The position numbers and the translations under genes were made by a program. Of a stretch of DNA of 64,000 nucleotides, positions 4,861 through 58,776 are shown one piece after another. Origin of the DNA: Schmidtea polychroa (lineage: Eukaryota); the NCBI GenBank assembly GCA_044892525.1, contig CM097885.1, forward strand, positions 82,894,001 to 82,958,000. Reading direction: 5' to 3'. Position 1 is the first letter of the stretch, and every line of letters begins with the position of its first letter. Under the pieces are notes generated by a model. That model was not told the DNA's origin. It searched no databases and worked only from the letters and a program-made list of their open reading frames with translations.

Positions 4861-5665
4861 NNNNNNNNNNNNNNNNNNNNNNNNNNNNNNNNNNNNNNNN
4901 NNNNNNNNNNNNNNNNNNNNNNNNNNNNNNNNNNNNNNNNNNNNNNNNNNNNNNNNNNNNNNNNNNNNNNNNNNNNNNNNNNNNNNNNNNNNNNNNNNNN
5001 NNNNNTCGACATCGAATTTCACTTCGTCTAGTTTTCTATGACATTAAAAAATTTAATAATGTGATCCAAGTCTGATCCAAATGATTTATTAACTTAGGAT
5101 CGAGCGCACTAATTCAATTTATGTACATGCAATATGCATTTACCCAATGTTATTCCTATGAAAATTGAAAGATTTTAATTGATACCAAGCATGCTATTTT
5201 CATTTATGATATTTAAGTTTATTCAATATACACACTGTTAATTAGTTTAATCACTTGATCCTAAATATAATTATATCTAATTCCATATGTAAATAATTAA
5301 ATGAAATATTAATAAATTTAAAATAAATTATATAGAATCTATATTATAGAAAAGTAGATAAGTATATCTATTATCGATATTAGCATAATTATTTAGATTA
5401 TTTGTCACAAGCAGTTTGTTTAATTAATATTCAAGAGGCAGTGGGTTAAAGAATTTGTAATAAGCAAATAAGTTGTATATTTATTTATTATCTTACACGA
5501 AAATTTGGAAATATTTATCACAGATCACGGATGTCGTTTTAACGCATAGATTTCGCTAGTGTTGGTTACCTGGGGAAGTATAATACTCCTAGGACGAGTT
5601 TTCCTCAAGTATCCACCACGACTTAGCTTTAATCTCCCACATGTGTACCCATGATGATAAGTCAT

Positions 5666-5776
5666 GTTGGTGCTGCGCACATGGGTCGGAACTTACAAAC
5701 AGGTGAGCCCCTACGTTAGGACTACTATTCGTAACATTCGCAGTACGGGTTCTCGAATGACAATAGAAGGACTTAC
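5666..5776. other. Conserved structured LTR motif, copy A
   Basis: CAGGTGAGCCCCTA-N3-TAGGACTACT-variable hairpin-TAGAAGGACTTAC, preceded by GTTGGTGCTGC..GGGTCGGAA; shared with 6123, 24384 and 58950. Confidence 0.75.
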
Positions 5777-6122
5777 ATCTTAATTTACTAAGACCCTGTC
5801 TTTGGTCCAAGGAGACAGTTACGGAAATTCGAAGTTCATTTACTGATTAGAATCTTAAGGGAGAGTCTTTCTCAATATCGGGTTCCCTGAGATTACTTAA
5901 CAACGCAACAAGTGATTACAAAATATCTATTAATTGCTGGGGCACTACTCGGTTGACCACCATTAGTTCAACTTTCGGCCTAGGAGATGAATGCCCATTC
6001 TAATCATGCTCGTCATTACTTTGTCAACCCCGAGCAGAGCCCACACATAACCTATACTCCAACATAGTACCCGTGAATTTCTCCACGTTGGAACTGTACT
6101 ATGCCGGCGAGACGCCAGTAAG

Positions 6123-6200
6123 CAGGTGAGCCCCTACCTTAGGACTACTCCTTACTGAGGCCTCGACTTCCCACTCTTGACGGCCGATAGAAGGACTTAC
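6123..6200. other. Conserved structured LTR motif, copy B
   Basis: Same core as copy A with a different inner hairpin (GGCC-TCGA...TTGA-C-GGCC). Confidence 0.75.
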
Positions 6201-6487
6201 GTCGATTCGAATTATCAATCTACTTCACTACCCTTTAGTTTGAATTGCAAACTGTCTAATACTTCTCGATTCTCAAAAAAAAATCTCCACCCTAGTTACG
6301 AAACTGAATCTCTCACAAAAGAAAATTATATAAAGACATAAAATTATTTATTCCAACATTAAGCATACAGAACACCGATGATTTACATGCAACAGAGATA
6401 TCGGATGAGGGAAAAACAAGGAAGGAAAGACATGATAATTCGGTCCAACAGTTTTACGGAGAATAGAGTCATTTCGCGGGAGCGTTC

Positions 6488-7237
6488 CTATTTCTCCCAC
6501 TCCGTATCCGCCAATAACTCATCTAAATTGAAAAACTCGGAGGCGTTTTCCTCCCAAGTTACTCCGGCGGCGGAGATAATTCGCCCTGAGATTCCTGATG
6601 TCGGATCGATTGCTATCAAGGGGGCGCTGACTTCCTTCAGAAGTTCCGTCGATGGTGTATTCTGTTTGGCGGTTATTCGTTCCCGCTGCTTCCTTTTACG
6701 CTCGGCTCTTGATAATTGCCGACGCTTTGGCTTCGATGTCGTTGGATTAGCTGGAGGTGCTGTGGATGTAGAAGCGATCGCAGGCGGCGCTTTACTCGTT
6801 CCAACGAAAATAACGTCTGGTTGTTTGGGCGAGAGCTGGGTCTCCACGCATTCTTGGCAGGACTTCTTGGAAGGAGACGACGACTTAGAAGAAGTGTCGT
6901 GGTGTGCGGGGAAAAGATTGTCGGCCTCATTGATGGGAATACTGACTATCTTTCGCGTAGTCGCAGCCTGCAGGTATACTTTGTGCAGGGCTTCGGATTG
7001 TTCCTTCGTCAAGCTCCTTTGCGAGCGGCTCTCAGAGATTAGAGCGTCCCGACAATGCTCGCTGCGGTATAGTTTTTTCTGTACCTCTTTCATTTGAGTG
7101 GGGCTAAACCAGGTGCCCTCCAACTCATCTATTTTTCTTTTATATCGCCCAATCTGGGTCTGCAGGTCCTTGATAATTGCATTTTTGTCCGAGCAGGAGA
7201 AGCAGGGAGGTAAAAAGGGCTTGGCAATCGGCATCAT
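6488..7237 (-). CDS. LTR-encoded protein of unknown function (CxxC, coiled coil, basic patch, acidic C-terminus)
   Basis: Intact 249-aa ORF; homologous to 24754-25514 (PCFSCxDKN, EGTWFSP, EHCRD, QSEALHKVY); acceptor-like CTTTATAG just upstream of ATG. Confidence 0.8.
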   Translation of the reverse strand: MMPIAKPFLPPCFSCSDKNAIIKDLQTQIGRYKRKIDELEGTWFSPTQMKEVQKKLYRSEHCRDALISESRSQRSLTKEQSEALHKVYLQAATTRKIVSIPINEADNLFPAHHDTSSKSSSPSKKSCQECVETQLSPKQPDVIFVGTSKAPPAIASTSTAPPANPTTSKPKRRQLSRAERKRKQRERITAKQNTPSTELLKEVSAPLIAIDPTSGISGRIISAAGVTWEENASEFFNLDELLADTEWEK

Positions 7238-9120
7238 GTTGGCTAGCTATAAAGGTGAGATTAAGATATGATATTCGAAATGTCATGCATTTGGTGCCAC
7301 TACTCCGTTACTATCTTGGATATTCCAAACAAACAGAAGAACAGATTAGATGGTAAAGGAATTGCTTTCCCCTCCCCCAGATGTCGACTCGTTTCTACCC
7401 TATACATGATTTACGAAGTTTAACTAATGCTGAACATAGGTGACTTGACGAATGTAAATGAATTAACTGGGAGATTTTGATGCTTTCAATTGAGTGCCTT
7501 TACTAACTCGAAGAATTTGCTACCAAGTCTAGATTTCCTTTTTAGATTTACAACTACGCTATCTCGGCGCTAACTACCTTGACAATTTTTGCACTTGGTG
7601 ATTTGAAGGTTTATAATGTTTAATAATATTAATAATAATGGTCTGATAGTAATAGGACAATAATGTTTTAGCAACAAAAGCGTTATAACATTCAATCTAA
7701 ATTTTGGTGGATTACTATCATCATTGACTTGAAATTTATATGGTTACCTATAATACCCATTGAACGAAATTATGAAGTAAATAAGATGAATCCCAATCGA
7801 AGTATTAAACTAACGAGATTAGTTAAAGTTTTGTTTCAATACAAATGGTTAGATTAGTGAGATGTATTTAAATTAAGCTATACCATATTATAAATTAGCT
7901 GAATATTATCATTAATTTGATGCAAAGAAAAACGATTAAATTAACCAGACGGGTTAGATAAAAATTTGACTCGACTAAAGGCATTAGATATTGGAGTAAT
8001 CAAAATCATCCAACTGGTGTTTTGGATCTAAAGTTCACCGATCCAATCTATCAGGTTTGTTCTCACTTACGTGGAGTTTTACCTGCTCAAGATAACCTAA
8101 AATTGCGAGTGCAGGGAACTTTCAGCAGCTTGATTTTTGCCGATAACAGTCGCTATGCTTGTGGTGTGCACGAACTCACCTGCTAACTAAATCGGGAGTG
8201 TTACGCCTTGGCTACTCGTATGTTGATTAATTTTTCAGGCATCGGTGTGTGTGCTTGTGACAGTTGTGAAGAAGTGCATGAGTTGATATGGGTTAGTGCC
8301 TGGATGTTTACACGATGGAATGAATTTGTAAATCTGATCTCGAGGAAGAGAACTGTATACATATACTTCTGGACTTTTATTTGGAAAAATACGATGAGAC
8401 GACATGAGTGCGATGTACGCTTCTTAGAACGGTGGTAATTACCGATCTCGAAATTTTTGTCTATGGGAAAGTCTGCTTAAAAAATAAAAAGAAATCCGAA
8501 AATTCAGAAATAGAGTTTAACGAGTTATACAATTCATTGGACAGATAGTAATCCCGATCTAGTCATTCGCAAAAGTAATATTAGTAGAATTCATATTCGA
8601 TTATACTTGTTGTTGGAGAGTACATCACTACCGAGGAGTGGAAATTTGATTATTAACATGATAACGTATTCAATTTTTCTCTCTCATACTCAAATCCGAT
8701 TGCTAGTTGCGTTCGTATCTTCGATATACTGGCACATATTTTCACCGTTCTTCCAATCTTCGCATAAATTTTCCAGACATTTAGGGGCATCCTTTATATT
8801 CGTAAATCCTGGGCAATGTCACTGTTGAAACTATTTATGGCATAAAGACATTTCATAAGAATATTCATCTACGTGAAGAGAAAAGAACTTTACTAGAATG
8901 CTATTCAATAATTTTATTTAACTTTGATATACACATAATAGCTTATGAATGAATAAAGTAAAATAAAAAAAATAAAATTTACATTCTTTCTTCCTTTATT
9001 TTCGGTACGACTCAAATAATTTGTTGCTATCGAATAATTAGGCTAGAGTGTTGTTGAGCTGTTCTGTGGCTGTATCTGTTTTTAAATTTGTAAGAATTGA
9101 GGGAATCAACCAAGTGTTTT

Positions 9121-9130
9121 CCTTATATAG
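9121..9130 (-). promoter_or_regulatory. Putative LTR TATA box
   Basis: CTATATAAGG on minus about 520 bp inside the solo LTR start; analogous CTATATAAGC at 38977-38986 in the 3' LTR. Confidence 0.5.
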
Positions 9131-10950
9131 TAAATTTTGTTCAATCAGGACTTAGCTTGTGTGTAAAATGATGTTTTTTCTTGTTTTTTGTGTTTTTAAT
9201 CGTTTTCTAAGTTAATTATTTATTTCTTTTTGCTAATTTATTAAATAATTTAATTTTTTACCTTTCTTCCTATTTTCTGTTAGGTTCTGATGGTCGTTTT
9301 GTTTGTAATTTTTGATTTAATCTTTCTTTGTTTTAATTTATAGTCTTCCTTGCGTGTAATTTATTTCTTTAGTGCTATTTTACTCTTTTTTGAATTTTAT
9401 TTTATTTTTTCCTAATTATTCTTGTCTTGGTTTGTGGATTATTGGTATATGGCCCTGTCTATTTTTATATTGTTTATTATTTGTTTTATTTTCCGTGGCT
9501 TTTGTTTTAATATTTTATTTTTCTTTTAATTTTTGATTTTTCTTACACTTGATTGATTACCACAATACCTTTTATACAGGCTCCCTTTAATTAAGTTAAT
9601 TACAATTTTTAATTTTTCTAAAATTTAATTATTACCGCTTTCAGCCCAACACTAGGTATATGATAGGAAAATCTATTTTCCCACGTTCCAAATATTCCTA
9701 TCGCATAACATCATAACATCCACTAGTAAACCATTGCAAGTGACGTTTGTGGATGGCTTCCAGCAGAAGATTATCTTCATAACTTTATACGGCCCTAGCT
9801 AAATAAACCATAATAATGAGATTATAGCTAACCAAATCAAAGACAAATTTGAGACAAAATTAGCAAAGAATATAAAATTAAATAGTCAACTATTGCTTGA
9901 TCCATAATGCGAGCTTCATTCAACCACCTCATGTGATTTTGTATTGGCTTCCTTCAGGTATTACTAAAACCTGGTATTTTGTAGAGAGTCGGAGTTGAAT
10001 TCATTACCATCGAACTGGTTACGGAAAATAATTAATGGTCTAGGGACGTTGAGGAAGACTGAAGTCCTTTATAAATATGTTTTTTTTAATTTTGAGATTA
10101 GAGTCTGGTGCTGATTCATGACTTTTAGACTCCTCGATTCTACCTATTCTTTCTCCAGCTGTTTTTCATGGAGTTTGTACTATTTTTTCGATTTGTGCAT
10201 TTGGTCTTGGAGGAGCCACGGTGTTTCTAGTGGGTAGCACTTTCGGATAATTGAGTAAACCATCAGTGATTGTTTCAGTGCTTTGATACTTAATTTCACT
10301 ACATCGATGCGGAATTTATCTAAAATTAGTTCTATTGAAATTAAATAAAATGTTTACGAATCAAAATGTTTATAGAGAAGTGATTATCAACAAAGTGTTG
10401 GTATAAATATGAGAGCATTAACGGGGTTAAAAAAATTTTCCAATACAAAAATCTAATTTGTTACGGAGGATAAATAGATGCGAAATAAGTACTAAATTGT
10501 GATAACGTGAAACATAAATTATTATGAGTGCAAAATAATGTAAAGTAATGTTGAGGATACATAAATTGCAAAAAAAAGATCTTCATTAAAGACGTAAAAT
10601 GATGGGGAAAATGATTATGAATGAATGGGATATTCTTCTGGAATTAGGTAAAACAGGAGTGGAAGGGAAATGTTGAGTAATGAGATGGAACAGAGTGGGA
10701 ACAATTGACTTGTTATCTTTATGGCCTACTCGAGATAGAGAGGGGAAAAGGTATGGTAAATCAGAGAAACGGGGTTGTAAAAAAATGGATCTATCTCGAC
10801 AGCTGTCAGAGATTACGGAATACCAATGGGAAAAGCGAGAAAAAAGAAGAAATTATCAATAAGTGCCATCAGATGGAAAAGTATAAAAACCGAACACAAA
10901 TTGACAGATGGTAGAATTATTGAAAAGGAGACAAAAAGAGAACATTTATG

Positions 10951-23485: not shown

Positions 23486-24349
23486 TAAAACCTTAATCTG
23501 AACAGTCAATAAAGTATCGTTCAAATCTAAATATTCGGTTTGCGAACCATTAATATAAAACTCGATATCATTTCTACTATCGGTAATTGAATTCATAGGA
23601 AAAACTTCCTCAAATGCCCCAAATTCTATTACAAATCATTTTGCAAATATAGTTCCATGTCCTTTCATTCGTTTGTTTATACGTGATATTCCATGTCTTT
23701 TACGTTTTGGAGCATGAGCTGGAGCTGGAGCTGGAGGTTTTTCTTTTTGAAACATACCTGCAACCCCGGGTAAAACTTTCCCTAATTCTGCTAAAGCATT
23801 TGATTTTAGAGATGGTAATATTTTCTGTTCATTCCTTCTGTAATATATAAATTATCTTTAAAAGTGTATGCATGCTCAGTTATTTCAAAGTATGATAGCT
23901 TAAATTTGAATTCCACTAAATTATTAGTTTTTGGATGTGTAGAGAGATTTATTTTGACTGTATCATTAAATACATTACGTAAATCAGTAAATCCAATACG
24001 TTTAGCATCAGCCATTGTAGAAAATAAAATTTCGAATGGCTTATTCAAGCAATTCATGTATAAATATTGACCATCATCATAAATTATAGGTTTACTTGAT
24101 TTCGATGACTATCTTTATCAATAAGAACACTAATATATTCCGTTACTGATACTTTCTCATTATATTCAATAACGGATTTGCTATAGATTGGGAATAAATT
24201 GTATACAAATTGTTGGGTGTACGTGGGGGAAATGGATAACTATTACTAATATGCACACAAACTCTCATCATTCCGCTCAGACGCTTCCCTCGTACACGCC
24301 CCATGATCATGCAAATATTCCCACGTATGAGCCCGTAGTGATGTTCTAC

Positions 24350-24458
24350 GTTGGTGCTGCCCACACGGGTCGGAAGAAGCTAGCAGGTGAGCCTCTATCT
24401 TAAGACTACTCCTAACCCCCTCTCAGTACAGGTTCTATGGTGCCTTAGAAGGACTTAC
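24350..24458. other. Conserved structured LTR motif, copy C
   Basis: CAGGTGAGCCTCTATCTTAAGACTACT...TAGAAGGACTTAC. Confidence 0.75.
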
Positions 24459-24753
24459 CCGTTCCTACATTTGCAATCGGCCCGACCCTGGTCCAAGAGG
24501 ACGGCCTTCATTCAAGGATGCTGTTCCAGTTTAACAATTCAATTATGCATTTCACTCATCATTCTCATCATTCAATCAACAAATAAAGAAAAATAAAATT
24601 TGTATTACATTCAAAAATTATCGAGACCGAAAAATCGTACACCAACATGCAATAAACTATTGATTACATAATACCGACGAATTGTTAGATACAGAGATAT
24701 TAGTTAAAGGTCTTTTCGAAATGAGAGATGGATCCCATCGTCGGGTCGGAATT

Positions 24754-25514
24754 TCAGAACGCATCTCCATCGGCGAATACTTCGTCTATGTCTACTGGCA
24801 ACCTGCGATCCACCAGATACTTAATGCCCTCGGCTGGAACCACTTTGAATATCTCCTTGGCCGGAATTACGTGGGTGGCTGAGATATCCTTAATTGTGGA
24901 CTGGGCCATGGATAAAGAAGCTTCTAGCGCCGCCATGGCGTTCCTGCGCTTCTGATTTTTCTCCGAGCGTGTTAATCTATTGCGTTTCCGACGTGGCTTG
25001 ATAGTATCTACTGGAACCTGTGACATAGGTTGAGGTACTAGAATCGGGGCCAAGATAGGGTCCGATGAGCCTCCTGCCATGGGTCTGTAGCCCGAGAGAA
25101 TTGGAGCGGGAATTAGTGGCAGATGCGGCCCATGCCCCTTACAACCAGTTGTGGTTGACTGTGCCGATTGGTGGTGGATCGGGAACACGTTAGTCCCGTC
25201 TTGCACTGGATACTCGCGAACTCGTTTCGCTATTTCTGATTCCGAGTAAACTTTATGGAGTGCCTCTGATTGGGCTTTTATGGTTAGCCTCTGGCACCGA
25301 CTTTCTTCTAGGAGACTGTCTCGGCAGTGCTCCAGGGCAATATTTTGCTCTTTTCCTCTTTCATTTGTGGCGGGGAGAACCACGTGCCTTCATAATGATT
25401 GATTCTTTTCTTTAGTGCCCCGATGTAGAGGTGAAGCTGCGCGATGTCAGCATTTTTGTCCGCGCAGGAAAAACAAGGACGAAGAGTTTTCTCGGTATTG
25501 ATTGGGGTAGTCAT
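24754..25514 (-). pseudogene. LTR-encoded protein homologous to 6488-7237, frameshifted near 25380
   Basis: Two overlapping ORFs (68 aa and 209 aa) together align with the 249-aa ORF; TTTAG acceptor-like site immediately before ATG. Confidence 0.8.
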
Positions 25515-26615
25515 CTAAAGATTAAAGATATTTACGTTTGCTTTTAGTATTTCGTTGATCGACGATCGTATTTTTGCGGCGCGAGTTTTATCACCTACAT
25601 CCTTCATAAACTGAACTTAAAGGAAAAATTATCTCACACATACATTCAACATTCGTCCTTAAACTCATTTATGCCCCAAACATCCACGATAATTCGCACA
25701 AATCTCTGTAACTTATTTAAAAGAAAATGAGAATAACCATGTTAATTTGCTCGTCTAAATCAATCTCATCTCAAATTCGGGGTGTCGATTATGGTTAAAT
25801 ATATCGTTGCTATTCACAATGTTAATATAGTGTCATTAATCGGGTTTGTGATGTTACTTAATTACATTTTTCTTTGCACTGTTAATTTTATTAAATTGTC
25901 TATTTATTTTTAATATATTATTATTTTCAAATCTCCGCTGGACTCGTTGTCATAACGACGCAACCTAAGGTGTTTTTGTATGGAAATATCTCTATCCGTG
26001 TGTATTGTGAAATACCGTTTGCAAGTAAAATGTCTCTGCACGAAAAGTACTGCCTGCTCATTTGTTTCTACATACCGTTCTACCAGCTCAGGCGAAGCCT
26101 ATACTATTATGCAATCTATCACGTCATACAAGAACTTTGCCGTTTATACTACTGTAGTCTTCTAGAGCGAATTTCTCTACAGCCTGTGAGTGTATGTACT
26201 CTTATGGCATTATCTACTAGAGTTGTTATGAGTAAAGGCCTTACGTATGTGTGTGTGATTCGGAGGGTTGTGAACGAGCTAAAGCTAATCATCTAATCTC
26301 TATGGTGTTGTAAATTCACGATAGCAGCTGTCAACACACTCAATGGATGAATCTTAAAAATTTTTCTATGCAAGTAAACATATTCAAAAACTTATTACCC
26401 GCCGTTACCCAGTGCTTAGCAGAACTACTGCTATATATCATTCATAGCACTGGGCAGAAATTGACCGTGACGCTGAGAAAATAATTGTATTTTTCAATTC
26501 AGGTAGGACGAAAAGCGGAGATGATCTCGCACAATGCTGGAACCGGATTCGGACGCGGCTACGACAGAGATATTCGAACACGGCGCTTTATGTAGAGCAA
26601 ACACTGAAGGGAAAA

Positions 26616-29600
26616 ATGAAGAGAGCGGCCGATATGGACCAGAGAGCGATTACGCTGCTCACAAGAGTCCGAGATAACAAATACAGGAATAATACAAACG
26701 ATAAAAATAATGAAAAAGAGAACTTTAATAATATTAATAATATTTATTCTAAGGATCAAAATAAATGGAGAAATGAAGCTGCTTTGAGACGGCAGATAAC
26801 GATGGAACACCGTGACACGACTACTCCACCTCATGACCTGGACTATGGACATGGACCTGGCAGGCAGATGGCTGCAGCGCACCGAATAACGACTCCACCA
26901 TCCTGTGATCTTGATTGCCAGGATGTATCCGGCAGAGGCTTTGTGGACGGGAGAGATGCTGGAGGAGTAATGAATGGGTACGATAATTATGATTACTCTA
27001 ATAAAAATAAATCAATAATATATAATTCGAATCAAACAAATATGAGAGGAAAAAATAATGACTATTACCCGCATGACAGCCATATAAAGAAATCAGCCTA
27101 TGGCTTTGCTTCACCTAATATGCCTGCTGAAAGTAACTCTCCCTCTAAATGCTTTGATAATGAAAGACAAAATACTTCTTACGTGAATGGCCGTCCGTTA
27201 AATGAAAAGGCATACTATCTTGACACTCCTGATCTGCCTAACAGTGATGAAACTATGCGAATTAATGAACTTAATGCGAAAATAATTGATAAAATAAACA
27301 ATAATAACCAAACCTATGCCAACAATTACCTTCTTCCACATCCTTCTTCTGCCCAATATGATGAAAGAAGTGCTCCAATAAAAATAAATCCACCTTCCTA
27401 TAAAGAGAAATTAATAAACAGAATAAATAAAAATAATGCCCATGAAGATCGAATTAATGAAGACTATATTAGAAAATACAGTCTCCATAATGATACGAAA
27501 TACTATGATTATAATAAAGAATGTAATACTCATATTGACAATAGTAAAAAATACTATTGTCCTGACGAATATAGTTACTTTTGCGAAAATCGCTCTGCCA
27601 AAAATGGCGAAAATAAATTTAAATTAATTAATAATGATAATAATAATATATTTAAACAACATATTTATAATAATGATATAAGTAATAGTGAATATAATAA
27701 TAATAAAAAGCATAATTTAAATAATGAAAATGATAAATCCAATAACTCTAAAAATCCAAAAAACAAATATAATAATAAATTTATAATTAATAATACATTG
27801 AACTATAATTTAAATCAAATTGAAAATGAATTCTATAATTTTAAATTAAAATTAGATAATAGTCTAATTAATTTTAAATACAAAATCGGAAATTTGTTTA
27901 AATTACCTAAACAATTTCCTTTTTTGAAAAATAATGATTTCCAAAATTTTTCTTGCCCTTCGGGCAAGAAAAATAAGCCCCTACGCAGCTCATCGGCCTG
28001 CGGCCGATTCGCCGGCTCCCGGACCAACAACGACGACGACGAAACCACAAAAAACGACCTTACTATCGACTTAACCGCAGAACCTCTACCCAACAATAAC
28101 ATCAATGACCAACACGCTGAAATACCAAATACGAAAATATCCAATAATACCTTTCGCCGAGAAATAAAAACACTCTCGAAACATTTTTGGACGATGTTCC
28201 ACAAAGACCCCACCTACATAAATATTCTTAAAGATTATAATAACGAGCTAAATAACTACAATGAAGACGACCAACCAATACCACTGACCAATAACACTAC
28301 AATGAACGTACCCACACTACCCATCACTAACAATAATGACACTACATTATCCAAAACACAAGCCAACAAAAATGACAAATACGAAACCACACCTAGTCTC
28401 ACCAATAACAGATTTCACGCCTTAGCCACCATAAATAATGACCCTAAGGTAAACAGTATAACAGACGCAAACCCACCAGCACCGTCTAACTACAACATTC
28501 CTACATCCACCACTAACAGTACCACTAATGTCCCACAACCTCATTCCATTTCCCCCCCTACCAAACCCATAGAAACTCAATCTTCCCCAATCAAAGCTAA
28601 TCAATCAAACACAATACAATCAACAACTAAACCACCCACTTACATTACTCCATTAAATACATGCAATAACAATATCGAAACCACAATACACTCGTCCCCA
28701 AATAAGGATACAAATATCACCCACAATAAAAGGGATAAACATCTCATACAAGAAATCCACAGAATAATCAACTGTAACAATCAAGAAATCTCCAAAAAAC
28801 ATGAAACAACCACAAAAAACCTGCAACAATACATAATACAACAACAACACGAACAAGCTAATACACACGAAACATTAGCGCTCCTAATCTCACAGATGAC
28901 AAAATTGCAACAACAACTACTCACACATAATACAGCAGCATCCTCCCAACTCCCTCACGACATTGATGATGTACACTTAACTCTCACGCCCAAGGATGAT
29001 GACCTAAACATACCTCCACAATTCCATCAACCTGAACCCTCAGACAATGAATCAAATGATTCCCAATCGGAAGATGACAATGACGGATACATCACAGAAA
29101 TAGAACGACAAATCCATGTGAATAACAAAGTCGACATTGATGAGACCCCAACCCAACAAACACCATCACAATATGAACAAATCAACAACACCCAACAAGA
29201 ACAAACAACACAAAGAACAACATCTTCCAGCGGCTCCCTTTTTTCACCAATGGAAAACATAACTCCAGTTGACCTCAACGACCCCTTTAACATGTATCAT
29301 GCACTAGATGTCCTCCACATAAAAGACTTTGCAATCATTAAAGACATAATGAAAACGCCACCAGCACCAGATACACAAACCTCAGAATCATCCACCAATA
29401 CACCCAATCCACTATATAACCTGCTCAACACCAACGAACAACCAGTAACCCAAAACCTCACCACGATTGACTCCCCATTCACGCTCAAAAAACAAGCACT
29501 ATTTAAACTAGGTAGTGAAGGCTACCTAAAATGTAGGATGAAAAATTGCAAACATGGCAAAATTGGCCCTCTGATGGAAGACAAGCAACATGAACACATG

Positions 29601-30095
29601 AAAAGCATGCATGACCGAATTATAAAAGACACAGACACATTCGAATGCCTAATATGCCAAAGACAGAGGAAAAAAGGACAGAACCAAACCAAATTCCTTC
29701 TCACAAATATTGAAGAACACTGGCTTGATTATCACCCTGAAAAACAAATCCCTGGTACTAGAGAACAATATAATGACAAAAGGCGAATCCTCACACTAGA
29801 GCTAAACGAAGAGGGAACACTACTATGCACATACATATGTAAGAAAAACCCCTGTGATATACATATGACTGTGAAGACCACCGCCAATGACATACTCAAA
29901 CACATTTCTACAAAACACAAAAGTAAAGTATTTGACCAGACCACAAACGTCAAATGCCACTGTGGTGAAACAATAAACTTTGATAATATGAAACAACACC
30001 ACCACTCACACATGGGAATACTTGAACCCACTGAAATAAACAATGAACCCCCCACAAACATCCCAGTAACCACCAAAGACATAGACTCCGACTGA
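26616..30095 (+). CDS. Non-LTR element N-terminal ORF: Asn/Thr-rich low complexity plus four C2H2-like zinc fingers
   Basis: 1159 aa; CRMKNC..HMKSMH, CLIC..HWLDYH, CKKNPC..HISTKH, CHC..HHHSH; ends at a single TGA in frame with the next ORF. Confidence 0.85.
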   Translation: MKRAADMDQRAITLLTRVRDNKYRNNTNDKNNEKENFNNINNIYSKDQNKWRNEAALRRQITMEHRDTTTPPHDLDYGHGPGRQMAAAHRITTPPSCDLDCQDVSGRGFVDGRDAGGVMNGYDNYDYSNKNKSIIYNSNQTNMRGKNNDYYPHDSHIKKSAYGFASPNMPAESNSPSKCFDNERQNTSYVNGRPLNEKAYYLDTPDLPNSDETMRINELNAKIIDKINNNNQTYANNYLLPHPSSAQYDERSAPIKINPPSYKEKLINRINKNNAHEDRINEDYIRKYSLHNDTKYYDYNKECNTHIDNSKKYYCPDEYSYFCENRSAKNGENKFKLINNDNNNIFKQHIYNNDISNSEYNNNKKHNLNNENDKSNNSKNPKNKYNNKFIINNTLNYNLNQIENEFYNFKLKLDNSLINFKYKIGNLFKLPKQFPFLKNNDFQNFSCPSGKKNKPLRSSSACGRFAGSRTNNDDDETTKNDLTIDLTAEPLPNNNINDQHAEIPNTKISNNTFRREIKTLSKHFWTMFHKDPTYINILKDYNNELNNYNEDDQPIPLTNNTTMNVPTLPITNNNDTTLSKTQANKNDKYETTPSLTNNRFHALATINNDPKVNSITDANPPAPSNYNIPTSTTNSTTNVPQPHSISPPTKPIETQSSPIKANQSNTIQSTTKPPTYITPLNTCNNNIETTIHSSPNKDTNITHNKRDKHLIQEIHRIINCNNQEISKKHETTTKNLQQYIIQQQHEQANTHETLALLISQMTKLQQQLLTHNTAASSQLPHDIDDVHLTLTPKDDDLNIPPQFHQPEPSDNESNDSQSEDDNDGYITEIERQIHVNNKVDIDETPTQQTPSQYEQINNTQQEQTTQRTTSSSGSLFSPMENITPVDLNDPFNMYHALDVLHIKDFAIIKDIMKTPPAPDTQTSESSTNTPNPLYNLLNTNEQPVTQNLTTIDSPFTLKKQALFKLGSEGYLKCRMKNCKHGKIGPLMEDKQHEHMKSMHDRIIKDTDTFECLICQRQRKKGQNQTKFLLTNIEEHWLDYHPEKQIPGTREQYNDKRRILTLELNEEGTLLCTYICKKNPCDIHMTVKTTANDILKHISTKHKSKVFDQTTNVKCHCGETINFDNMKQHHHSHMGILEPTEINNEPPTNIPVTTKDIDSD

Positions 30096-30122
30096 CTAAA
30101 CCAGCACCAGATCTCCGCATAC

Positions 30123-33100
30123 ATGCTAACACATGCAACTACTGAAAACACTATATACATAGATAGCTTTATAGGACTTGCATGCATTGAAAAACACTTC
30201 CAAACCTTTTTTTCTGCCTTCCCATTTCATAAATATCCTACATGGATAGACCTAATTTGGCCCATCAACATCGAAAGGAACCTCTGGATACTCTTTTACA
30301 TAAATAAAAAACGTAACCTTGCCACAATTATTGATCCCACCTGCCAAATTAGCACCATGAAACATTACAACACAGCAACAACTATACTCAACATACTGAC
30401 CAACCTCCAAAACATAATAACCACAAATGATTTCACCTTACAAGAACTAACATATCCAAGATGCAATGAAACAAAGCAATCAGGATACTACATATGCCAC
30501 TTTGCCAAATGCCTAGCCTCCAACAGATGCATCACACTCCCCGACATACAAAACATACGCACAGACCTTAACAAAATAATAAACCTAATAATATATAGAA
30601 GGAAAGCAACTGATGACGTGACCAGATATACCGCATTCATTGATGACATAATTATCCAGCTTGACACTAATACTATCCATGTTGATGAGAGCCTCGTAGA
30701 AATTGCCAAGATACATGAAGCTATATACCCCAACAAATACAAAAGTAAAACAATACCAATAAACATCCTCAACTCAAAAGACACTAAGCGATTAGTATTC
30801 GAGCTACGACTAGACTTTGATAGAAGACCAAAAGCAACAATTGAAAAAATACTCAACAAAAATGAAAACACAACGACCACACCGACAGACGATGACATCT
30901 ACAAAAACTTCCAAACCACAACAAAACACATAACTAAATATAGTACACCAGATACACAACCCTCATACATTGACCTTATATCAGATAAACCCATAACAGA
31001 CACAGAACTCAACGAATCCATACTCAAACTTGACAGCACATCAGCCCCAGGTAGTGACAAAATCACATACAAAGAGTGGAAAAAGATAGACCCGAAAAAC
31101 AAATTTAGACTGGCACTTTTTAACAACATACTACGCAATGGACATAGTCCCAAAACGTGGAAAACCTTTAGAACGAAACTCATCCTTAAACCAGGCAAAG
31201 AGCAATCACCGCATGAAGTATCATCCTGGAGACCGCTTGCTATACTGGACTCAGCATATCGCACATTTGCCTCAATCATGAATGATAGACTTCTCTCCTG
31301 GATTCAGCTAGGACACCTGTTGAGCACTAACCAGAAAGCGGTGGGAACTCCGGATGGATGCGCTGAACATAACACAGTTATCAGTCTCGCCAAGGAATGT
31401 GCAGTGAGAAATGGGACGGATATTAATATCATCTGGCTGGACCTTGCGGATGCTTTTGGTAGCCTTCCGCATGACCTTATTTGGCATACCCTGTCGAGAC
31501 TGAAACTGAAGGCAAAAACAATCGATCTTATTAAAGAAATGTATACTGACTGCTACTCAATATACGAATGCGAGGACCGACGATCAAGGGAGATACGGAT
31601 AAACAATGGAGTCAAGCAAGGCTGCCCAATGTCTATGACTCTGTTCAGCCTCTCCATTGACTATATCCTCCAGAAAATCCTCAAACAACACCCACTTGTT
31701 ATAGATGGACACAATATAAGCATAATGGCATATGCAGATGACATTGTCATGATCTCCAACACACGGCAAGAAATAGGTAACATGTTACGAACTATAGTTG
31801 AACTCTCTGACATATCTCACCTTAAATTCAGACCCTCTAAGTGCGGCTACTTCCAACTACAACGAAACCACAAAGAGATACCCCTAACTATATACAAGGA
31901 AAAAATACCCATCATTGATCACGACAACATATATAAATACCTAGGAGTTGACTTCGGCCAGAAAGGCAAACATGACATTGACAACACACTCATAAAAGCG
32001 ATTGATGACACGACAAAAATAATGACCTCTGACCTACACCCAGCACAAAAACTTCAAGCATACAAGACTTTCATACACTCTAGACTAATATTTCCATTCA
32101 GAAACTGTACAATCAACAACATGATTCTTGACAGCAACAGAAACAAAGTAGTACAAAATAGACCCAAACAATTAGGATATGACCAAAAAATAAAGAGAAT
32201 ATTAAAAGATACACTAGATGATATACACCAAAACATTAATAACAACTTCTTTTATGCACATTGTAAACTAGGAGGTCTTGGCATAGTGCCTAGTATAGAT
32301 GAATACATGATACAAGGCATCACACACATCATCAAAATACTACACACACGAGACACTAGCATGAGGGAATTCATAATCCAGCAAATGATAGCAGTAGCCA
32401 AAATACGATTTAAACACACCACAATAGACATACACCAAACACTACGCTGGATTAATGCAGACATTAAAGGTGACATAAGTGGACCAGCAACTGTATTCGG
32501 AAAATTTCGGTCTGCCATAAAAAGAATGAATGAGAAATTCGGCATCAAAATCACACTGACACTTGACAACAACAAATACATACTACTCCTGAAAACAAAA
32601 GACTACACCATATATATTAACGACACAAACCTCACAGAAACCTCTGCCAAACTACATGAAATCACAAGTGAATGGTATGCAGATCAATGGTACCAGATGA
32701 CATGTCAAGGATACATTTCTAGGACCATAGGCGCAAATAGACAATCAGCACACCTAATCAAATCACACACCCTGACAGATAAACAATACATATTTCTCAT
32801 TAAAGCAAGAAACAACATGATAAGCCTCAACTATAGTGCATACAGAATGAAAGAAAACATGAATACAAAATGTAGGCTCTGTAATGCTGAACCAGAAACA
32901 CAAGCACACATATTCAATCACTGCCTCAAAACAACAAATGCTAGGAGAAACAAACACAATAAGGTCATGGATAAAGTTAGCGGGTATCTCATTTCGAAAG
33001 GTTTCCAAGTAGACGTAGAACGCCCACCCCCCGGAATAGACACTAGGCTAAGACCAGACCTCATCATCAAAACAAAAAGGAATAACAAAATCCACATACT

Positions 33101-33413
33101 TGACATTAAGGTACCCTATGACCGTGAAGAAAACTTCAAAACTGCCAGAGAAGACAACTACAAAAAATACAGAACATTGGCAATTGAAACAGGGAAAAAG
33201 AACGACTGCAAGACTACATTGGATGCGCTAGTTGTCGGCACTCTAGGCTCCTGGGACAAAAATAACGACACAGCACTTACCAAGATAGGACTAAACAACA
33301 GCGAAATCAAAGCTATAGCCAAGCTATGTATGAGAACAGCAGTGGCTGCCAGCTTTGCAATATACATGGATCACATAACAAATATAAGTAAACCATTATC
33401 AAACACACAATAA
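30123..33413 (+). CDS. Ulp1-like (degenerate) protease, reverse transcriptase and restriction-like endonuclease
   Basis: SAPGSD, WRPLAI, WLDLADAFGSL, GVKQGCPMS, AYADD, YKYLG; CRLC..HIFNHC; RPDLII..ILDIKVP. Confidence 0.95.
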   Translation: MLTHATTENTIYIDSFIGLACIEKHFQTFFSAFPFHKYPTWIDLIWPINIERNLWILFYINKKRNLATIIDPTCQISTMKHYNTATTILNILTNLQNIITTNDFTLQELTYPRCNETKQSGYYICHFAKCLASNRCITLPDIQNIRTDLNKIINLIIYRRKATDDVTRYTAFIDDIIIQLDTNTIHVDESLVEIAKIHEAIYPNKYKSKTIPINILNSKDTKRLVFELRLDFDRRPKATIEKILNKNENTTTTPTDDDIYKNFQTTTKHITKYSTPDTQPSYIDLISDKPITDTELNESILKLDSTSAPGSDKITYKEWKKIDPKNKFRLALFNNILRNGHSPKTWKTFRTKLILKPGKEQSPHEVSSWRPLAILDSAYRTFASIMNDRLLSWIQLGHLLSTNQKAVGTPDGCAEHNTVISLAKECAVRNGTDINIIWLDLADAFGSLPHDLIWHTLSRLKLKAKTIDLIKEMYTDCYSIYECEDRRSREIRINNGVKQGCPMSMTLFSLSIDYILQKILKQHPLVIDGHNISIMAYADDIVMISNTRQEIGNMLRTIVELSDISHLKFRPSKCGYFQLQRNHKEIPLTIYKEKIPIIDHDNIYKYLGVDFGQKGKHDIDNTLIKAIDDTTKIMTSDLHPAQKLQAYKTFIHSRLIFPFRNCTINNMILDSNRNKVVQNRPKQLGYDQKIKRILKDTLDDIHQNINNNFFYAHCKLGGLGIVPSIDEYMIQGITHIIKILHTRDTSMREFIIQQMIAVAKIRFKHTTIDIHQTLRWINADIKGDISGPATVFGKFRSAIKRMNEKFGIKITLTLDNNKYILLLKTKDYTIYINDTNLTETSAKLHEITSEWYADQWYQMTCQGYISRTIGANRQSAHLIKSHTLTDKQYIFLIKARNNMISLNYSAYRMKENMNTKCRLCNAEPETQAHIFNHCLKTTNARRNKHNKVMDKVSGYLISKGFQVDVERPPPGIDTRLRPDLIIKTKRNNKIHILDIKVPYDREENFKTAREDNYKKYRTLAIETGKKNDCKTTLDALVVGTLGSWDKNNDTALTKIGLNNSEIKAIAKLCMRTAVAASFAIYMDHITNISKPLSNTQ

Positions 33414-34614
33414 GATACATACCAACACAAACCCGTTCTAACCACCATGATCTCAGTTAAGCAGAATATTGTGTTATGTTNNNNNNNNNNNNNNNNNNNN
33501 NNNNNNNNNNNNNNNNNNNNNNNNNNNNNNNNNNNNNNNNNNNNNNNNNNNNNNNNNNNNNNNNNNNNNNNNNNNNNNNNNNNNNNNNNNNNNNNNNNNN
33601 NNNNNNNNNNNNNNNNNNNNNNNNNNNNNNNNNNNNNNNNNNNNNNNNNNNNNNNNNNNNNNNNNNNNNNNNNNNNNNNNNNNNNNNNNNNNNNNNNNNN
33701 NNNNNNNNNNNNNNNNNNNNNNNNNNNNNNNNNNNNNNNNNNNNNNNNNNNNNNNNNNNNNNNNNNNNNNNNNNNNNNNNNNNNNNNNNNNNNNNNNNNN
33801 NNNNNNNNNNNNNNNNNNNNNNNNNNNNNNNNNNNNNNNNNNNNNNNNNNNNNNNNNNNNNNNNNNNNNNNNNNNNNNNNNNNNNNNNNNNNNNNNNNNN
33901 NNNNNNNNNNNNNNNNNNNNNNNNNNNNNNNNNNNNNNNNNNNNNNNNNNNNNNNNNNNNNNNNNNNNNNNNNNNNNNNNNNNNNNNNNNNNNNNNNNNN
34001 NNNNNNNNNNNNNNNNNNNNNNNNNNNNNNNNNNNNNNNNNNNNNNNNNNNNNNNNNNNNNNNNNNNNNNNNNNNNNNNNNNNNNNNNNNNNNNNNNNNN
34101 NNNNNNNNNNNNNNNNNNNNNNNNNNNNNNNNNNNNNNNNNNNNNNNNNNNNNNNNNNNNNAATGTCTGCGACACAGGAGAGGGGCTTAGGAACAGGTAA
34201 TAAAAATAATAAACCTAAAATTGCATCTAATGGCACAGAGTGCTTATTAGTGCAAGTACCCTAACGGACCCCAGATCAGAAATGGGTCTTTTAGGGTAGA
34301 CTAAAAAAGCAAAAATAAATGTAGTCAGAGGCATAAATAACCAACTGACACATAACAAACATGTAAATGGTTTGATAACTCGCCAATATCAAATCATTGA
34401 GCGGTTTTATCTCTGATATTCCCGTGAAGCACTGCATAATAGTGCTCAAATCCTTGGCCACCAGCGTAGTGATGACTGATGATCCCTCATGGGAACACAG
34501 AAGAAAATAATTCGTTTAAAAATCAAACCCGTTATGCTATGACCGCTTTGAGGTTGAAGCTCATCCGCCAGGATCCGACCTTCTCTTTGGAGCGGTAGGT
34601 AAAACCAAGCTTTG

Positions 34615-36260
34615 AATCACATCGGCTGATGACTCTGAACATGATGGAAGAAGCTTCAATCCTGGAGATATCGCTAAGAAAAATTATACTTTATCACAGT
34701 CTAATCTCATTTCTAGATCCGATAAAGCTCCTTCAAACAGAAATGGAAGAAGCTCCAATCCGGGAAATGGCATCAAGGATAAATTACTTTCAACATATAC
34801 TAATCTTCCTTATAGAAATAATGAAATCCGATCCCTTGAATCACCTTATGCCTCCTGCCCTGATGTATCGAATCTTGATGCTCCAAGGAAACCAGATGAC
34901 TGTGAGGTGATGGATAGCAGACTTTGTCCTGCCAGGAAGATCCTGAAGAAATACGGAATCTCTTCTCCTTGTTATGATATTATTGCTCCAGAGAATGCAT
35001 CCTCGGACCCGACCAGAGATACTTCCTGGAAAGCCTTTTGCCCTGCTCGTAGGATTCACATCCTAAATAAAAATAATGGTAATTATAATCAGAATTTCCA
35101 TTGGAGTTCAAGATAAGATAATGCAACTGAATGACAACTTCTTATATGCAGCTTGCAAGCTTGGTGGTCTTGGACTTGTATCATCCATTGACGAATACCT
35201 TATTCAAAGCATCGTACAACTTATCAGGGCTTTAAACTCTAGCGATCTTAACTTTAAGACTCTAATTACTACTGAACTTATCGAGGCTAGGGGACAAGGA
35301 GATTTAAATGTGGCACTGTCCTGGCTGAATGGCCAACTCTCTAAAAGCTACCCAACTTTCTCCATCTTCTCAAAATTTAAAAAATCTGCCCGTCGTCTGC
35401 TTCATAACTACGGTATATCTACCAAAATTGTAATGCTTGAGGACCTTCTACAACTCGAAATAAAATATAAGAGTCGTATCAATTACTTCTCCCTCGGTAA
35501 TGTGGATAGAACCTCAGCTGAACTACACTCTATTATTGGCCTTATTCATGCTGAACGTTGGTGTGCGATGAAATGCCAGGGCTATATGGCAAAGGCAATT
35601 AGCGAAAGCAACATCGCTGACTATTTCTTTAAAAGTGACATCCTTCCTGATGCCCAATTCCTCTTTCTTATTCGTGCACGCAACAACCTTCTAAAATTGA
35701 ACTACTCACCACACCGCTTAAAAACTAATAAATCTATACTCTGCCGGCACTGCCATGCCCACCCAGAAACACCTGCACACATCTTTAATCATTGCCAAGC
35801 ACGTATTAATGCAAGACGAAATAAGCATGATAATGTCCTAGAAACTGTGGCAAACTTCCTTATATCTATTAACTATGAAGTAGACATAGAGAAAGTACCT
35901 GAAGGCACCAATTCCACCCTTAAGCCTGATCTTCTTCTAAAATCTAAGCGTAACAAATCTATCCATATCTTAGACATTAAGGTTCCTTTCGACTCCAGAG
36001 AAAACTACGACAACTCTAGGAGAAATAACTATAACAAATATAAGGAACTAGGAGAGGAAATAGGTAGACTCCATAAATGCCCACACACTCTACATGCCCT
36101 GGTAGTTGGCACCCTTGGTTCATGGGACAAAAATAATGACTCGATACTTAAAATTATCGGCCTATCCAATAATGAAATAAAGGAACTAGCCAAAAAAGCT
36201 TGCGTAGCTGCAATCAATAGCAGCTACCACATATATCGTCAACATATATATAAAAATTAA
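34615..36260 (+). mobile_element. Second, internally deleted NeSL/R5-like element of another subfamily
   Basis: 35076-36260 encodes the post-RT/CCHC/RLE region (KLGGLG, CRHC..HIFNHC, KPDLLL, ILDIKVP), similar to but clearly diverged from 30123-33413; a low-complexity open frame at ~34615-35116 may be its N-terminus. Confidence 0.78.
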
Positions 36261-37093
36261 TTATACTTATATATTTATCTTTTTGTAGCCAAAGCATCTC
36301 TTATTTATTTGTCTTCTATGGTTATTATATATCACCCCTATACAATTTTCTTTGTCTCTTGGTGAACCAGTCTTGAAAACCAGATATTGATATATAATAT
36401 GTACTCAGAGCATTATCCTAATCTATTTGTGTACTATGGCTATTATCTATATTATTTACTATTATTAATCAACTATATAAATATCTAAACTCTCTAATTC
36501 AACCAACTCTCTCTAAACTGACTTAATGACCATAATACCTAATGTTGTAATACTATTATCCTTAATGTATTTAATATAATATTATTTCTGTTATTGCNNN
36601 NNNNNNNNNNNNNNNNNNNNNNNNNNNNNNNNNNNNNNNNNNNNNNNNNNNNNNNNNNNNNNNNNNNNNNNNNNNNNNNNNNNNNNNNNNNNNNNNNNNN
36701 NNNNNNNNNNNNNNNNNNNNNNNNNNNNNNNNNNNNNNNNNNNNNNNNNNNNNNNNNNNNNNNNNNATTAATAATGTACTGCGGGTGCCAATCACCGAAT
36801 GGGTTAATCTAGGAATCCTTGTAGGGGTTCTGCCTATTTGGTGGTCTTTTTAGTAGTTCTTATCAATACTATAATGATCTTTATTATACTATCACTACTA
36901 TAATCATTAACATTACGAACTAATAATAATATCCATACTTATCCCAACCTTCACCAACTCCTTCCAATATATACTATAATAAGTAATATAATATGCGATA
37001 TATAAACCTTCAAGGGAGCCTTCCTGCCCCGACATTTATTTATTTCAGATATTATCATGTACGATCCGGTATCCCTCTCAAATGGCGGACCTT

Positions 37094-37477
37094 CCCAACT
37101 GCTCCATTTACTCCAACTGCTCCATTTACTCCAACCACTCCATTTATTCCAACCGCTCTATTTGCTCCAACTGCTCCATTCACTTCAACTACTACAATCA
37201 ATCCAAATAGTGAAATATACACCAACATCAATAATCCTGCAATATCGATCACCTCCACCTATCAAGACCAATCCAAACCTCTAAATTCTGAACACCTGCA
37301 CCAAATCTTTAAACTACTGAAAACTCCTACGATGATGACTCCCCAAAACTCTACCACGATACTCCAATTGCTCCAACTGCTACAATTGCTCCAACTGCTA
37401 CAATTACTCCAATTGCTACAATTACTCCAACTGCTCCAATTACTCCAATTACTCCAACTGCTCCTATTACTCCAACC
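37094..37477. repeat. Two arrays of 9-bp tandem repeats (ACTCCAATT/GCTCCAACT type)
   Basis: Arrays at ~37094-37190 and ~37361-37477; they translate as TP/TA-rich, LLQ or Gly-X-Y depending on frame. Confidence 0.9.
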
Positions 37478-37649
37478 CATTTGGAAACCCACGTTCTGAT
37501 ACCTGAGTTTATAACTCTGGTATCCATCGGTCATTGAATTAAAAGCTACAGAACTCTAAGGGTGAGAAGTTCTCCCCTTCCTGGCCAAGTGCCGTCAATT
37601 GATTAAAATAAAATTTGATTTTTTTTTTTTTTTTTTTTTTTTTTTATTT

Positions 37650-39383
37650 CGTTACCTCAGTTTTCTAATATTGGTCGATTCATAATCGGATAACTTTTAT
37701 CTAGCTGAAAATTTTTGTCGACAACCAACTGCTAATGCTGATAGCGCTTTCGCTCATATTGACCGTAAGTAACTGATAATGACTACTGATGTTGTTTACA
37801 TTATTTTCAGGGAATCGAAGCTTATCAGTAACCTAAAAGTCAAAATCCAACTTAAAAAGTGCATCGGCACTGGGTTTCATCGCTAACGCTCTGGCGATCT
37901 AAATCTCTATAAGAAAACCTAACGATCGTTCATGCGCATCTATTTGGAATTTGTGCTAAAACTGAAGATTATTATCTATGACTGTGTAACTCACTACGAC
38001 GAAAAAGTGCTGAGGAAGTAATTATGTCCAATTTGAGCTTAATGGAATATGATTTCGACCTAAAAGAGTAGATTCACTTCATCTCAATTGCTCCGGAAAA
38101 TTCTGTTGGATTTACTATTTTCGTTCCTAACATCGTGATCTCAATTTCACTACTGACGGAATATTTTCTCTGACGATCGCAGACTTCACTCGGTGAAAGA
38201 AAACTCCTCTAATCTCTCTTACTTCATACTCTGGATGTCCTCACCCCTCCTGACCCACCCAAGAGCGGCATACATTGCTGCCACCACTCTTGGACCGTCA
38301 GGAAGGACGATTCCATCTCTCCGCATCTCAATTTTATTGGTATATCGAATGAACATCAAAATAAATGATATAATGCATTTGAATGAATTAAAATTTCACT
38401 GAAATCATAAAAATTATATACCTGGCGACCACGCCGTCTGAACCTCGAACATGATGCTATACTATAGTATTAATGTTACGTTTCTGGTGAACTCTATCTC
38501 ATTAAAATTCTCGATTCCATTTTCTCGTTTCAAATCATTCTCATATACTTTCCGGTGAATATCCATCTGAGCCTCCGCATCATATTCGATCTCCAGACAA
38601 CGCCGTCGTCAGCACCATAGAGAGAGAAAACCATATTGTGTTTATAACTTTTTATTAAGAATAAATTAGTTTTTATTATCCATTTTATATAAAAATATCA
38701 ATAACAAAATACAAACATCCTGCTTACTATGATCGTTTCCTCCGAGAGTATTAGAAATGGTTTATGAGTCCTCTTTCGATACACTATTAGTCCAATAAAA
38801 ATTCGATAGAAATTGAGTCCTGTTGAATATTAGGTAAGTGTCTGAAAGTTTAGTTCCTGAAATATTCGTATAGCTGCTTAAGAGTAGTATCTGTAGAGTT
38901 TCGGTAGAATAGTTGCGTAGTTCTAAAGTCCTGTAGAGTATAGTGGTTAAATGGTACTCTACAGATTTTCTTCATTGCTTATATAGTATTTTCCGTCCAA
39001 TCCAATTTCCCTCGCTTTTCTTATGACTTTATTGTTATTCGGTTATAATATAATTTTCTTTTGTTTTAATTACTTTATATAAACGTTTGCAAATGGTTTT
39101 ATTTCCATTTTATTCTTAGTATCTTATTTATTTTCCTTAAATTTATTATTCTATTTCCTTCTGCTATCATAGATGTTAGGTAATTTTCTTTTCCGTCTTA
39201 CTTTTCGTCTTATTAACTTTAGTAATTTATTATTTATATTATTTCCTTTATTTTCTTATTTTCTTTTATTGTTATCTAATTTTAATTGTTCTTATAGTTA
39301 CTGTATTTTTTCGGGGAATTTATCCTATCCTTTTTTATTTATCTTTAACCTGGTTTCTAATACTCTCGAAGCTTAGCCCAACA
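37650..39383 (-). mobile_element. 3' LTR, proximal (U3) part
   Basis: Minus strand starts TGTTGGGCT at 39383 (same as solo LTR TGTTGGGCT at 9651); TATA-like at 38977-38986; AGCTG..ATTTTTG.CGA.AAC near 37705 resembles 8127-8150 of the solo LTR; left boundary approximate. Confidence 0.72.
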
Positions 39384-40283: not shown

Positions 40284-40311
40284 TTATTTACATCAATTAT
40301 CCCTTTTTAAT

Positions 40312-41013: not shown

Positions 41014-41189
41014 TTTCTATAATATATACATAATTAATAATTGCGCTACAGTGCGGCTTATACTTATACATTTATATGTAATTTTATATAATCAGGGTTA
41101 CAGTCCCGTCAATACTTTTATCGTACTATTAATTTTTTTGTTGGGATATAGGTCCCGATTTTTTATACTTTTATCTTTTCCATTTATCT

Positions 41190-42227: not shown

Positions 42228-42520
42228 CTTTGTCTGAATAATGATATTATCAACTCAACGTCGCACATTTATATTCGTTTTATTATTTATTTATTGTTAC
42301 AATTCGATATAGGTGGGTTGTTTTTAGAAGTTTTCCGCTTAAGTTTACCTTTAGTGGATTTGGGGATTTTTCTACACTATTATATAATATTTTACTGGAT
42401 ATATACGCCGATATTTACAATTAGTATATACAAAATTATTCGTCTCGCTACTCAGTCCTACTCTTCCCGTCTGTTCGACAATCTCTTTGAATTCTTCTCT
42501 TTGTCGCTTATCCATTTCTA

Positions 42521-42558
<38 letters not shown>

Positions 42559-43944: not shown

Positions 43945-43950
43945 GCATCT

Positions 43951-54726: not shown

Positions 54727-54728
54727 TT

Positions 54729-58769: not shown

Positions 58770-58776
58770 AAAATCA

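Follow-up and report, generated by a model that had tools for sequence, protein, structure and literature searches.

The 64,000-nucleotide stretch of Schmidtea polychroa DNA analyzed here (the window) carries a giant LTR retrotransposon on its minus strand. Pfam matches identify a RING ORF, gag, a mononegavirus-type fusion protein, PR-RT-RH-IN and ankyrin repeats. The fusion protein (PF24664, 50668-54765) lies between gag (55644-57344) and PR-RT (48131-50395), and the internal region is broken into several frames. The available text on the planarian element Burro/GYPSM1 describes a gypsy element of about 30 kb with an env-like fusion protein between gag and pol, ankyrin repeats and a RING/IAP-like ORF (PMC6431247). 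The window element shares this protein anatomy: it has the env-like fusion protein between gag and pol, the PR-RT-RH-IN order and the ankyrin repeats. The two accounts differ in that the published one, in its available part, is confined to proteins, with neither an LTR RNA structure nor a gag-only 14-kb relative. Three relatives have LTRs of about 4.2 kb placed about 26 kb apart (about 30 kb in all), 4-nt target duplications and a tRNA-Pro primer site. Coordinates of the features are collected in Table 1.

Table 1. Features of the window, with positions counted from its first letter
Feature	Position	Strand	Remarks
Copy A, five-helix U5 domain (family A, related to type I)	5627..5788	-	covariance model (CM) R1 151.7 bits; training-set member
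Copy B, five-helix U5 domain (type II)	6049..6212	-	CM 148 bits; training-set member
Copy C, U5 domain (type I), 3' LTR of Burro-like element	24311..24470	-	CM 144.5 bits
Copy D, U5 domain (type I), 5' LTR	58877..59036	-	CM 144.5 bits
Helix-1 loop starting with donor-like GUAAG	59012..59024; 5764-5776, 6188-6200, 24446-24458	-	near-invariant columns
Invariant 3' strand of apical hairpin and 1x3 internal loop	58950..58959	-	first part primer-site-like
Helix 4/5 8-nt bulge ending CCAA	58917..58924	-	
Anti-D-arm box, loop of upstream hairpin	59055..59065; 24489-24499, 5803-5813	-	
Anti-D-arm box, type II position, downstream of core	5976..5986	-	
PAS-like heptamer complementary to tRNA-Pro T arm	58995..59001; 24429-24435, 5746-5752	-	
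Primer-binding site, complementary to 3' end of host tRNA-Pro(UGG)	58753..58769	-	17-nt match
Poly(A)-signal-like hexamer	59167..59172; 24601-24606, 6347-6352, 5926-5931	-	about 145-160 nt upstream of GU
CCAAT-like box and TATA box	9122..9148	-	about 520 nt from LTR start
LTR-internal ORF, about 250 aa	6491..7246; homologue 24757-25389	-	without Pfam match
Chimeric solo LTR: full type II LTR plus last 376 nt of family-A LTR	5560..9651	-	target duplication CTAG
3' LTR of Burro-like element	24211..39383	-	interrupted by non-LTR element sequence
5' LTR, remaining 3' part	58777..59487	-	cut by inverted non-LTR fragment
Internal region: RING ORF, gag, fusion protein, protease-RT-RNase H-integrase, ankyrin repeats, accessory ORFs	39606..58363	-	

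The sequence interrupting the 3' LTR is a NeSL-like non-LTR element with an Ulp1 protease and an RT (26448-36257), whose two long ORFs are split by a single in-frame stop at 30093-30095. The inverted fragment that cuts the 5' LTR (59459-60205) is 85% identical to it. The LTR of copies C and D also contains an inverted internal copy of its own terminus, 438 nt from the LTR end (24211-24223, 24637-24648).

A 14-kb family, type III below, has LTRs of 1.65 kb that are >99% alike and a Gag 30-32% identical to Burro Gag; no pol match was found in it. Its loci at G000:C1 5989124-6004536 and 30554222-30569599 (L142-L145) are young and have a tRNA-Pro primer site, the gag-like ORF of 877 aa begins >8 kb downstream of the 5' LTR, and motif matches belonging to the family number on the order of a thousand. 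This family is probably a non-autonomous Burro passenger. One type III element (L146-L148, G000:C1:67.51-67.54 Mb) has a Polinton-like stretch between its two LTRs, with a DNA polymerase B and a double jelly-roll capsid.

Copies A and B lie together in a solo LTR. They had been taken as a duplication within one LTR family, but the pair is a one-off chimera: the type II LTR portion terminates at 5935, the end of a family-A LTR follows, and a 4-nt CTAG target duplication flanks the whole of 5560-9651. None of 19 other family-A loci has a type II unit in that place. Doubled U5 units occur elsewhere, at L088 (G000:C1:28508375-28513321), L090, L104/L130 and L326. In one case a 496-nt type II tail follows a type I LTR, in another 299 nt are duplicated in tandem, and in a third two type III units stand 400 nt apart; L326 has two model matches. 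Since doubled ends recur in these other combinations, we regard the A/B pair as a chimera rather than a family trait.

Conservation and fold of the LTR motif

The four copies are present as first noted, with TAGAAGGACTTAC exact at 5764, 6188, 24446 and 59012 and CAGGTGAGCC at 5700, 6123, 24384 and 58950, and all of them are near the U5 end of an LTR. The literal pattern that the earlier note gave for them has 0 matches, being one N too short between CTA and TA. Its remark that the surrounding sequence is hard to align was borne out: copies A and C can be aligned at 5666-5776 alone (74% identity), and five family pairs are 65-71% identical over the 140-nt motif as against 44-61% over the flanks. 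The conserved unit runs about 75 nt past CAGGTGAG and takes in two more helices. Copies C and D are identical. From copy D it is about 100 nt downstream to the LTR end and the primer site, and in every family inspected 150-190 nt separate the end of the motif core from the LTR end. There are three subtypes: I (copies C and D, with the related family A), II (copy B) and III (the 14-kb family).

Genome-wide, the first block pair has 1,765 matches (control 0) and a looser core pattern 4,307 (control 2); these counts are lower bounds, because the whole genome was scanned with patterns and not with a covariance model. Viral contigs gave 0 motif matches. By eye, the six pattern matches in metagenomes have neither the helices nor the flanking blocks and are apparently due to chance, and no credible match beyond this genome was found in the viral contigs and metagenomes searched.

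Of 123 matches, 66 were kept at <93% identity, and 60 of these were aligned after excluding six units with large indels or truncation. The alignment gives a fold of about 160 nt with five helices on the sense (minus) strand. Helix 1 has a 13-14-nt loop starting GUAAG; helix 2 is long, contains an invariant 1x3 internal loop and is capped by hairpin 3; helix 4 has an 8-nt bulge ending CCAA and is capped by hairpin 5. Types I and A add an upstream hairpin. When all column pairs were scanned with a G-test/APC statistic, the top 10 were all helix pairs, and four of these reached E<=0.05 under our own tree-based null (20 alignments). Overall, 94.0% of cells are paired, compared to 34.5-46.4% in slid controls, and double changes occur in 24 of the 33 pairs (0/500 shuffles). 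Among 21 distinct further copies 89.4% of cells are paired, in an alignment fitted to the model. RNAalifold on its own does not predict helix 1, and single-copy folding z-scores are weak (-0.7, -2.4 and -1.1).

The 33 pairs contain 268 G-U and 36 A-C cells, an excess that identifies the sense strand as the RNA, and the MFE is lower for the sense strand in 50/60 sequences. The fold sits on the minus strand, and the strand assumed in the earlier note was wrong. That note had also proposed that the two ends of the motif pair with each other. This helix is paired in 96% of cells because its columns hardly vary; none of its 8 pairs shows a double change and one pair is broken in 8/60 sequences. It may form as an alternative fold. 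Likenesses of the antisense strand to 5S, SRP helix 8, RNase P and group II domain V were discarded, since the fold lies on the opposite strand and Rfam returned no match.

Rfam has no match to the motif: there are 0 at gathering score in the window, at E<=10 the interval 5500-6400 gives nothing but chance matches to Rfam 15, and on 20 loci none falls on the motif. A simple transcription factor site is ruled out by the compensatory changes. The covariation in all five helices, together with the absence of Rfam matches, supports the earlier suggestion of an undescribed cis-acting RNA. One locus does contain a mir-753 precursor (L025:1806-1867; 81 bits, above the Rfam cut-off), about 110 nt outside the LTR end.

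Conservation reaches >=90% at 41 near-invariant positions, and a further 9 are invariant. Columns 13-25, the helix-1 loop, are nearly invariant; each base of GUAAG is conserved in 58-60 of the 60 sequences, and the sixth base is variable. The internal loop is invariant on both strands and does not covary. A kissing interaction of the helix-1 loop with the loop of the small hairpin shows no covariation.

A new self-cleaving ribozyme class, as the earlier note also proposed, is very unlikely. The size, the several helices and the roughly 40 near-invariant positions are ribozyme-like, and no Rfam family matches. However, no pseudoknot appears among the top covarying pairs, and by eye the domain does not fit the hammerhead, HDV, hairpin, twister, pistol and twister-sister cores. 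Cleavage in U5 would, moreover, detach R from the primer site and be expected to block strand transfer. In twister-sister ribozymes, GCAAG and GCUCA strands close one internal loop; here these strands lie in different covarying helices, and their mutual pairing shows no double change. The HDV ribozyme is a nested double pseudoknot with P3 directly before the 3' strand of P1, and the candidate likeness was rejected given that the top covarying pairs include none that cross and no P3 was found by eye.

Probable position in the transcript

In four of five LTRs, at a distance of 330-570 nt from the LTR start, a TATA box is preceded at 16-28 nt by a CCAAT box; the fifth LTR has a variant. AATAAA is concentrated 140-175 nt upstream of the GU that starts the helix-1 loop, with 29/88 occurrences in two adjacent bins and at most 6 elsewhere. 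By eye, a poly(A)-like hexamer is present in 15/16 type I units (AATATA/AATACA), 13/18 of type II and 1/11 of type III, with U/GU-rich sequence behind it. The TATA position would imply a short U3 and an R of about 3.2 kb: transcription probably starts about 550 nt into the LTR, and most RNAs would end at the poly(A) site about 130 nt before the motif. The LTR-internal ORF at 6491..7246 ends upstream of the hexamer. From the TATA and hexamer positions we infer a long R that holds this ORF and a domain placed in U5, which only read-through genomic RNA would carry. The ORF is about 27% identical between types I and II and apparently falls within the R region of about 3.2 kb.

Transcript data came from assembled contigs of runs that we guessed to be RNA. 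Neither the joints listed for 39600-59487 nor the contigs at one type I LTR end include a joint at the GU, and some contigs continue through the GU to the primer site; these contigs speak neither for nor against splicing or cleavage. In one type III family no genomic copy was found in which other sequence adjoins the exon side. One LTR (L071) has another strong donor-like sequence, GGTAAGT, about 60 nt after TATA and near the inferred start site; it is a candidate for the true major donor.

The nearly invariant GUAAG with its variable sixth base is donor-like, and in types I, A and II it is conserved 140-175 nt downstream of the hexamer. The helix-1 loop could offer a 5' splice site to U1 snRNP, either for splicing or to suppress the upstream poly(A) site, with the fold gating access. 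Genomic RNA does require bypass of the 5' LTR poly(A) site, and there are precedents in HIV and in foamy virus, where the available text describes a donor-like sequence in a structured LTR region, again in both LTRs (PMC3694450). The foamy virus donor is, according to the same text, upstream of the poly(A) signal in R, whereas the one here is downstream and in the inferred U5. A donor downstream of the poly(A) site in both LTRs provides no built-in 5'/3' asymmetry. Against a U1 site, the exon-side bases track the cis helix and not U1 (position -1 fits U1 in 20/60), only 5 of about 40 conserved positions are explained, and type III retains GUAAG without the hexamer. We consider this explanation unlikely but credible; it is compatible with the primer-docking function discussed below.

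A transcript starting at the TATA box would place the motif behind an AUG-rich leader of 3.4 kb, with 61-83 AUGs ahead of it in three Burro LTRs. The invariant blocks might in that case recruit 40S subunits past this leader by pairing with the 3' end of 18S rRNA, as an IRES- or BTE-like element. Loop columns 19-24 and hairpin columns 87-96 are near-complementary to the 3' tail of the host 18S rRNA and to helix 45. When 1,520 nt of 18S are searched, the second block fits best at helix 45 (16/2000 shuffles); the first block gives 63/2000 shuffles. This comparison was post hoc, however. Over the 5,145 nt of the rRNA operon another window is better, and 179/1,600 shuffled block pairs do equally well. 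Reading frames that begin with the AUG/GUG at the base of helix 5 are 1-79 codons long and not conserved, and type III gag is >8 kb downstream. The BTE pairing is itself called unproven in the available text of PMC6614841. Ribosome recruitment is very improbable.

Complementarity to the primer tRNA

Every primer site seen is for tRNA-Pro, and no family with a different primer was found among those examined. We took the host tRNA-Pro(UGG) sequence from the genome and count positions on its 72-nt gene. Units of types I, A and II contain a box of 8-11 nt complementary to tRNA-Pro nt 8-18 (anti-D-arm box). It is found upstream in 21/22 type I/A units, with a regular expression built from tRNA-compatible letters and so partly circular. 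For type II, the best D-arm match falls at +196 to +221 from the GU in 18/18 units; a regular-expression parse of these boxes mis-parsed 3/16. Type III matches are weak (6-9 nt, mostly 6). Pyrimidine runs match the D arm easily because it is G-rich. With pre-specified windows on 20 newly fetched loci, which share ancestry with the training set, the D arm scored 19.85, versus 15.25 in an upstream control region, and 58 control tRNAs scored 14.26+-0.87 (maximum 17.3) on the same loci.

The T arm scored 16.8 on the new loci, versus 16.09+-0.88, and its match is not Pro-specific; the heptamer complementary to it is found in 27/66 units, none of them type II. An 8-nt primer-site look-alike occurs in 42/66 units. 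The CCAA bulge fits the anticodon loop in 60/60, though over 4 nt only. An open scan of the whole tRNA gave tRNA-Pro a top-three sum of 57.4 versus 56.9 for host tRNA-Lys, and a top window of 21.4 versus 21.2; 73 phage tRNAs scored 50.2+-2.2, with 1/73 above tRNA-Pro.

A shared fold ahead of the primer site, accompanied by tRNA-complementary boxes, is likely to serve tRNA docking and to mark RNA for packaging. The place in U5 beside the primer site, the retention of the domain in the pol-less family and the D-arm box at two alternative positions all point this way. The gag-only type III family keeps the U5 domain, as expected for a cis signal served by helper proteins. We therefore propose that in the genomic RNA this domain docks the primer and directs packaging, a reading that we put at an even chance. 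Of the three functions suggested in the earlier note (regulated splice donor, packaging/dimerisation signal or ribozyme), packaging is the best supported, and primer docking is added by evidence which that note had not seen.

If the proposal is correct, read-through genomic RNA alone would carry the domain. Gag/NC would bind the invariant loops and open the tRNA, whose 3' end would anneal to the primer site and whose D arm would anneal to the anti-D-arm box. In types I, A and III the T arm would pair with the PAS-like heptamer, and the anticodon loop might perhaps pair with the CCAA bulge. As a result, full-length RNA would be selected for particles and minus-strand synthesis licensed, comparable to the roles of Ty1 boxes 0/1/2.1 and the HIV PAS.

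Against primer docking, the tRNA boxes lie beyond the invariant core or on its border, and the core itself is left unexplained. Most simply, the invariant loops are a putative Gag/NC or tertiary-contact surface. Alternatively, the core could bind an element-encoded or host protein that controls export, transcriptional read-through or dimerisation, comparable to an RRE, RxRE, CTE or DIS; the tRNA boxes would then be a separate function next to it. Invariant internal-loop strands without covariation are typical of sequence-specific recognition, several Burro accessory proteins have no assigned function, and the loop contains an imperfect palindrome. That palindrome is perfect in 3/60, however, where a dimerisation loop should favor a perfect one, and in the gag-only family such a protein would have to be supplied in trans. 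We judge a separate protein site distinctly unlikely. A more elaborate scheme would make the domain a tRNA-sensing switch. Intact tRNA-Pro would be gripped at the CCAA bulge by its anticodon loop (in the manner of a T-box specifier), and at its D arm, T arm and 3' end. The RNA would flip between the five-helix fold and the alternative pairing of loop to hairpin, and would thereby link the loading of the primer with U1 access, read-through of the 5' LTR and packaging. Such a switch is quite improbable.

Primer docking has parallels in well-studied elements. According to the available text, Ty1 boxes 0, 1 and 2.1 are complementary to the T or D hairpins of its primer tRNA (PMC5454406). They form part of TIPIRT, a structured 5' cis domain required for packaging and priming (PMC5454406, PMC4974528). 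The Ty1 boxes are 6-7 nt long, against 8-11 nt here, and the Ty1 domain functions in a mini-element given helper proteins (PMC5454406, PMC4974528). As described there, they are 3' of the primer site in GAG, whereas the boxes here are 5' of the site, in the LTR, and move between families; the Ty1 core is a pseudoknot, whereas none was detected here, and the primer here is tRNA-Pro. Ty3, of the same gypsy superfamily, also has primer T and D arms contacting element RNA outside the main site (available text of PMC5371799 and PMC11381356). It differs, on that account, in having a short 5' site and segments about 4.8 kb away, compared to a 17-nt site and boxes within 300 nt here. The HIV-1 PBS segment shares the U5 location, a PAS complementary to the T arm and an A-rich loop comparable to one that could read the anticodon (PMC11181671). 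It has another fold, the available text describes no anti-D box in it (PMC11181671), and the PAS-like heptamer is absent from type II here. The U5 domain would resemble Ty1 TIPIRT and the HIV PBS segment in working, yet it belongs to no Rfam family by sequence or fold.

The Burro-like host element is already known; we found no published description of its LTR RNA fold. A search of openly available papers gave no Burro LTR RNA structure or ribozyme, and the available text of PMC8532177 and PMC11410931 has no description of such a domain.

The fold is deeply covarying, testable and common to thousands of LTRs, from an env-bearing giant element to a non-autonomous animal relative. To our knowledge, cis-acting RNA domains of LTR retrotransposons have been mapped for little beyond yeast Ty1 and Ty3. 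The D-arm box has moved between families, and the ligand of the invariant core could be new. The domain predicts genomic RNA and primer selection, and is a sensitive marker for LTR annotation.

The host genes for tRNA-Pro(UGG) form a tandem array with a 475-bp repeat at G000:C1:130.90-130.95 Mb (L150), and there are 2,164 pattern matches genome-wide, an abundant primer supply.
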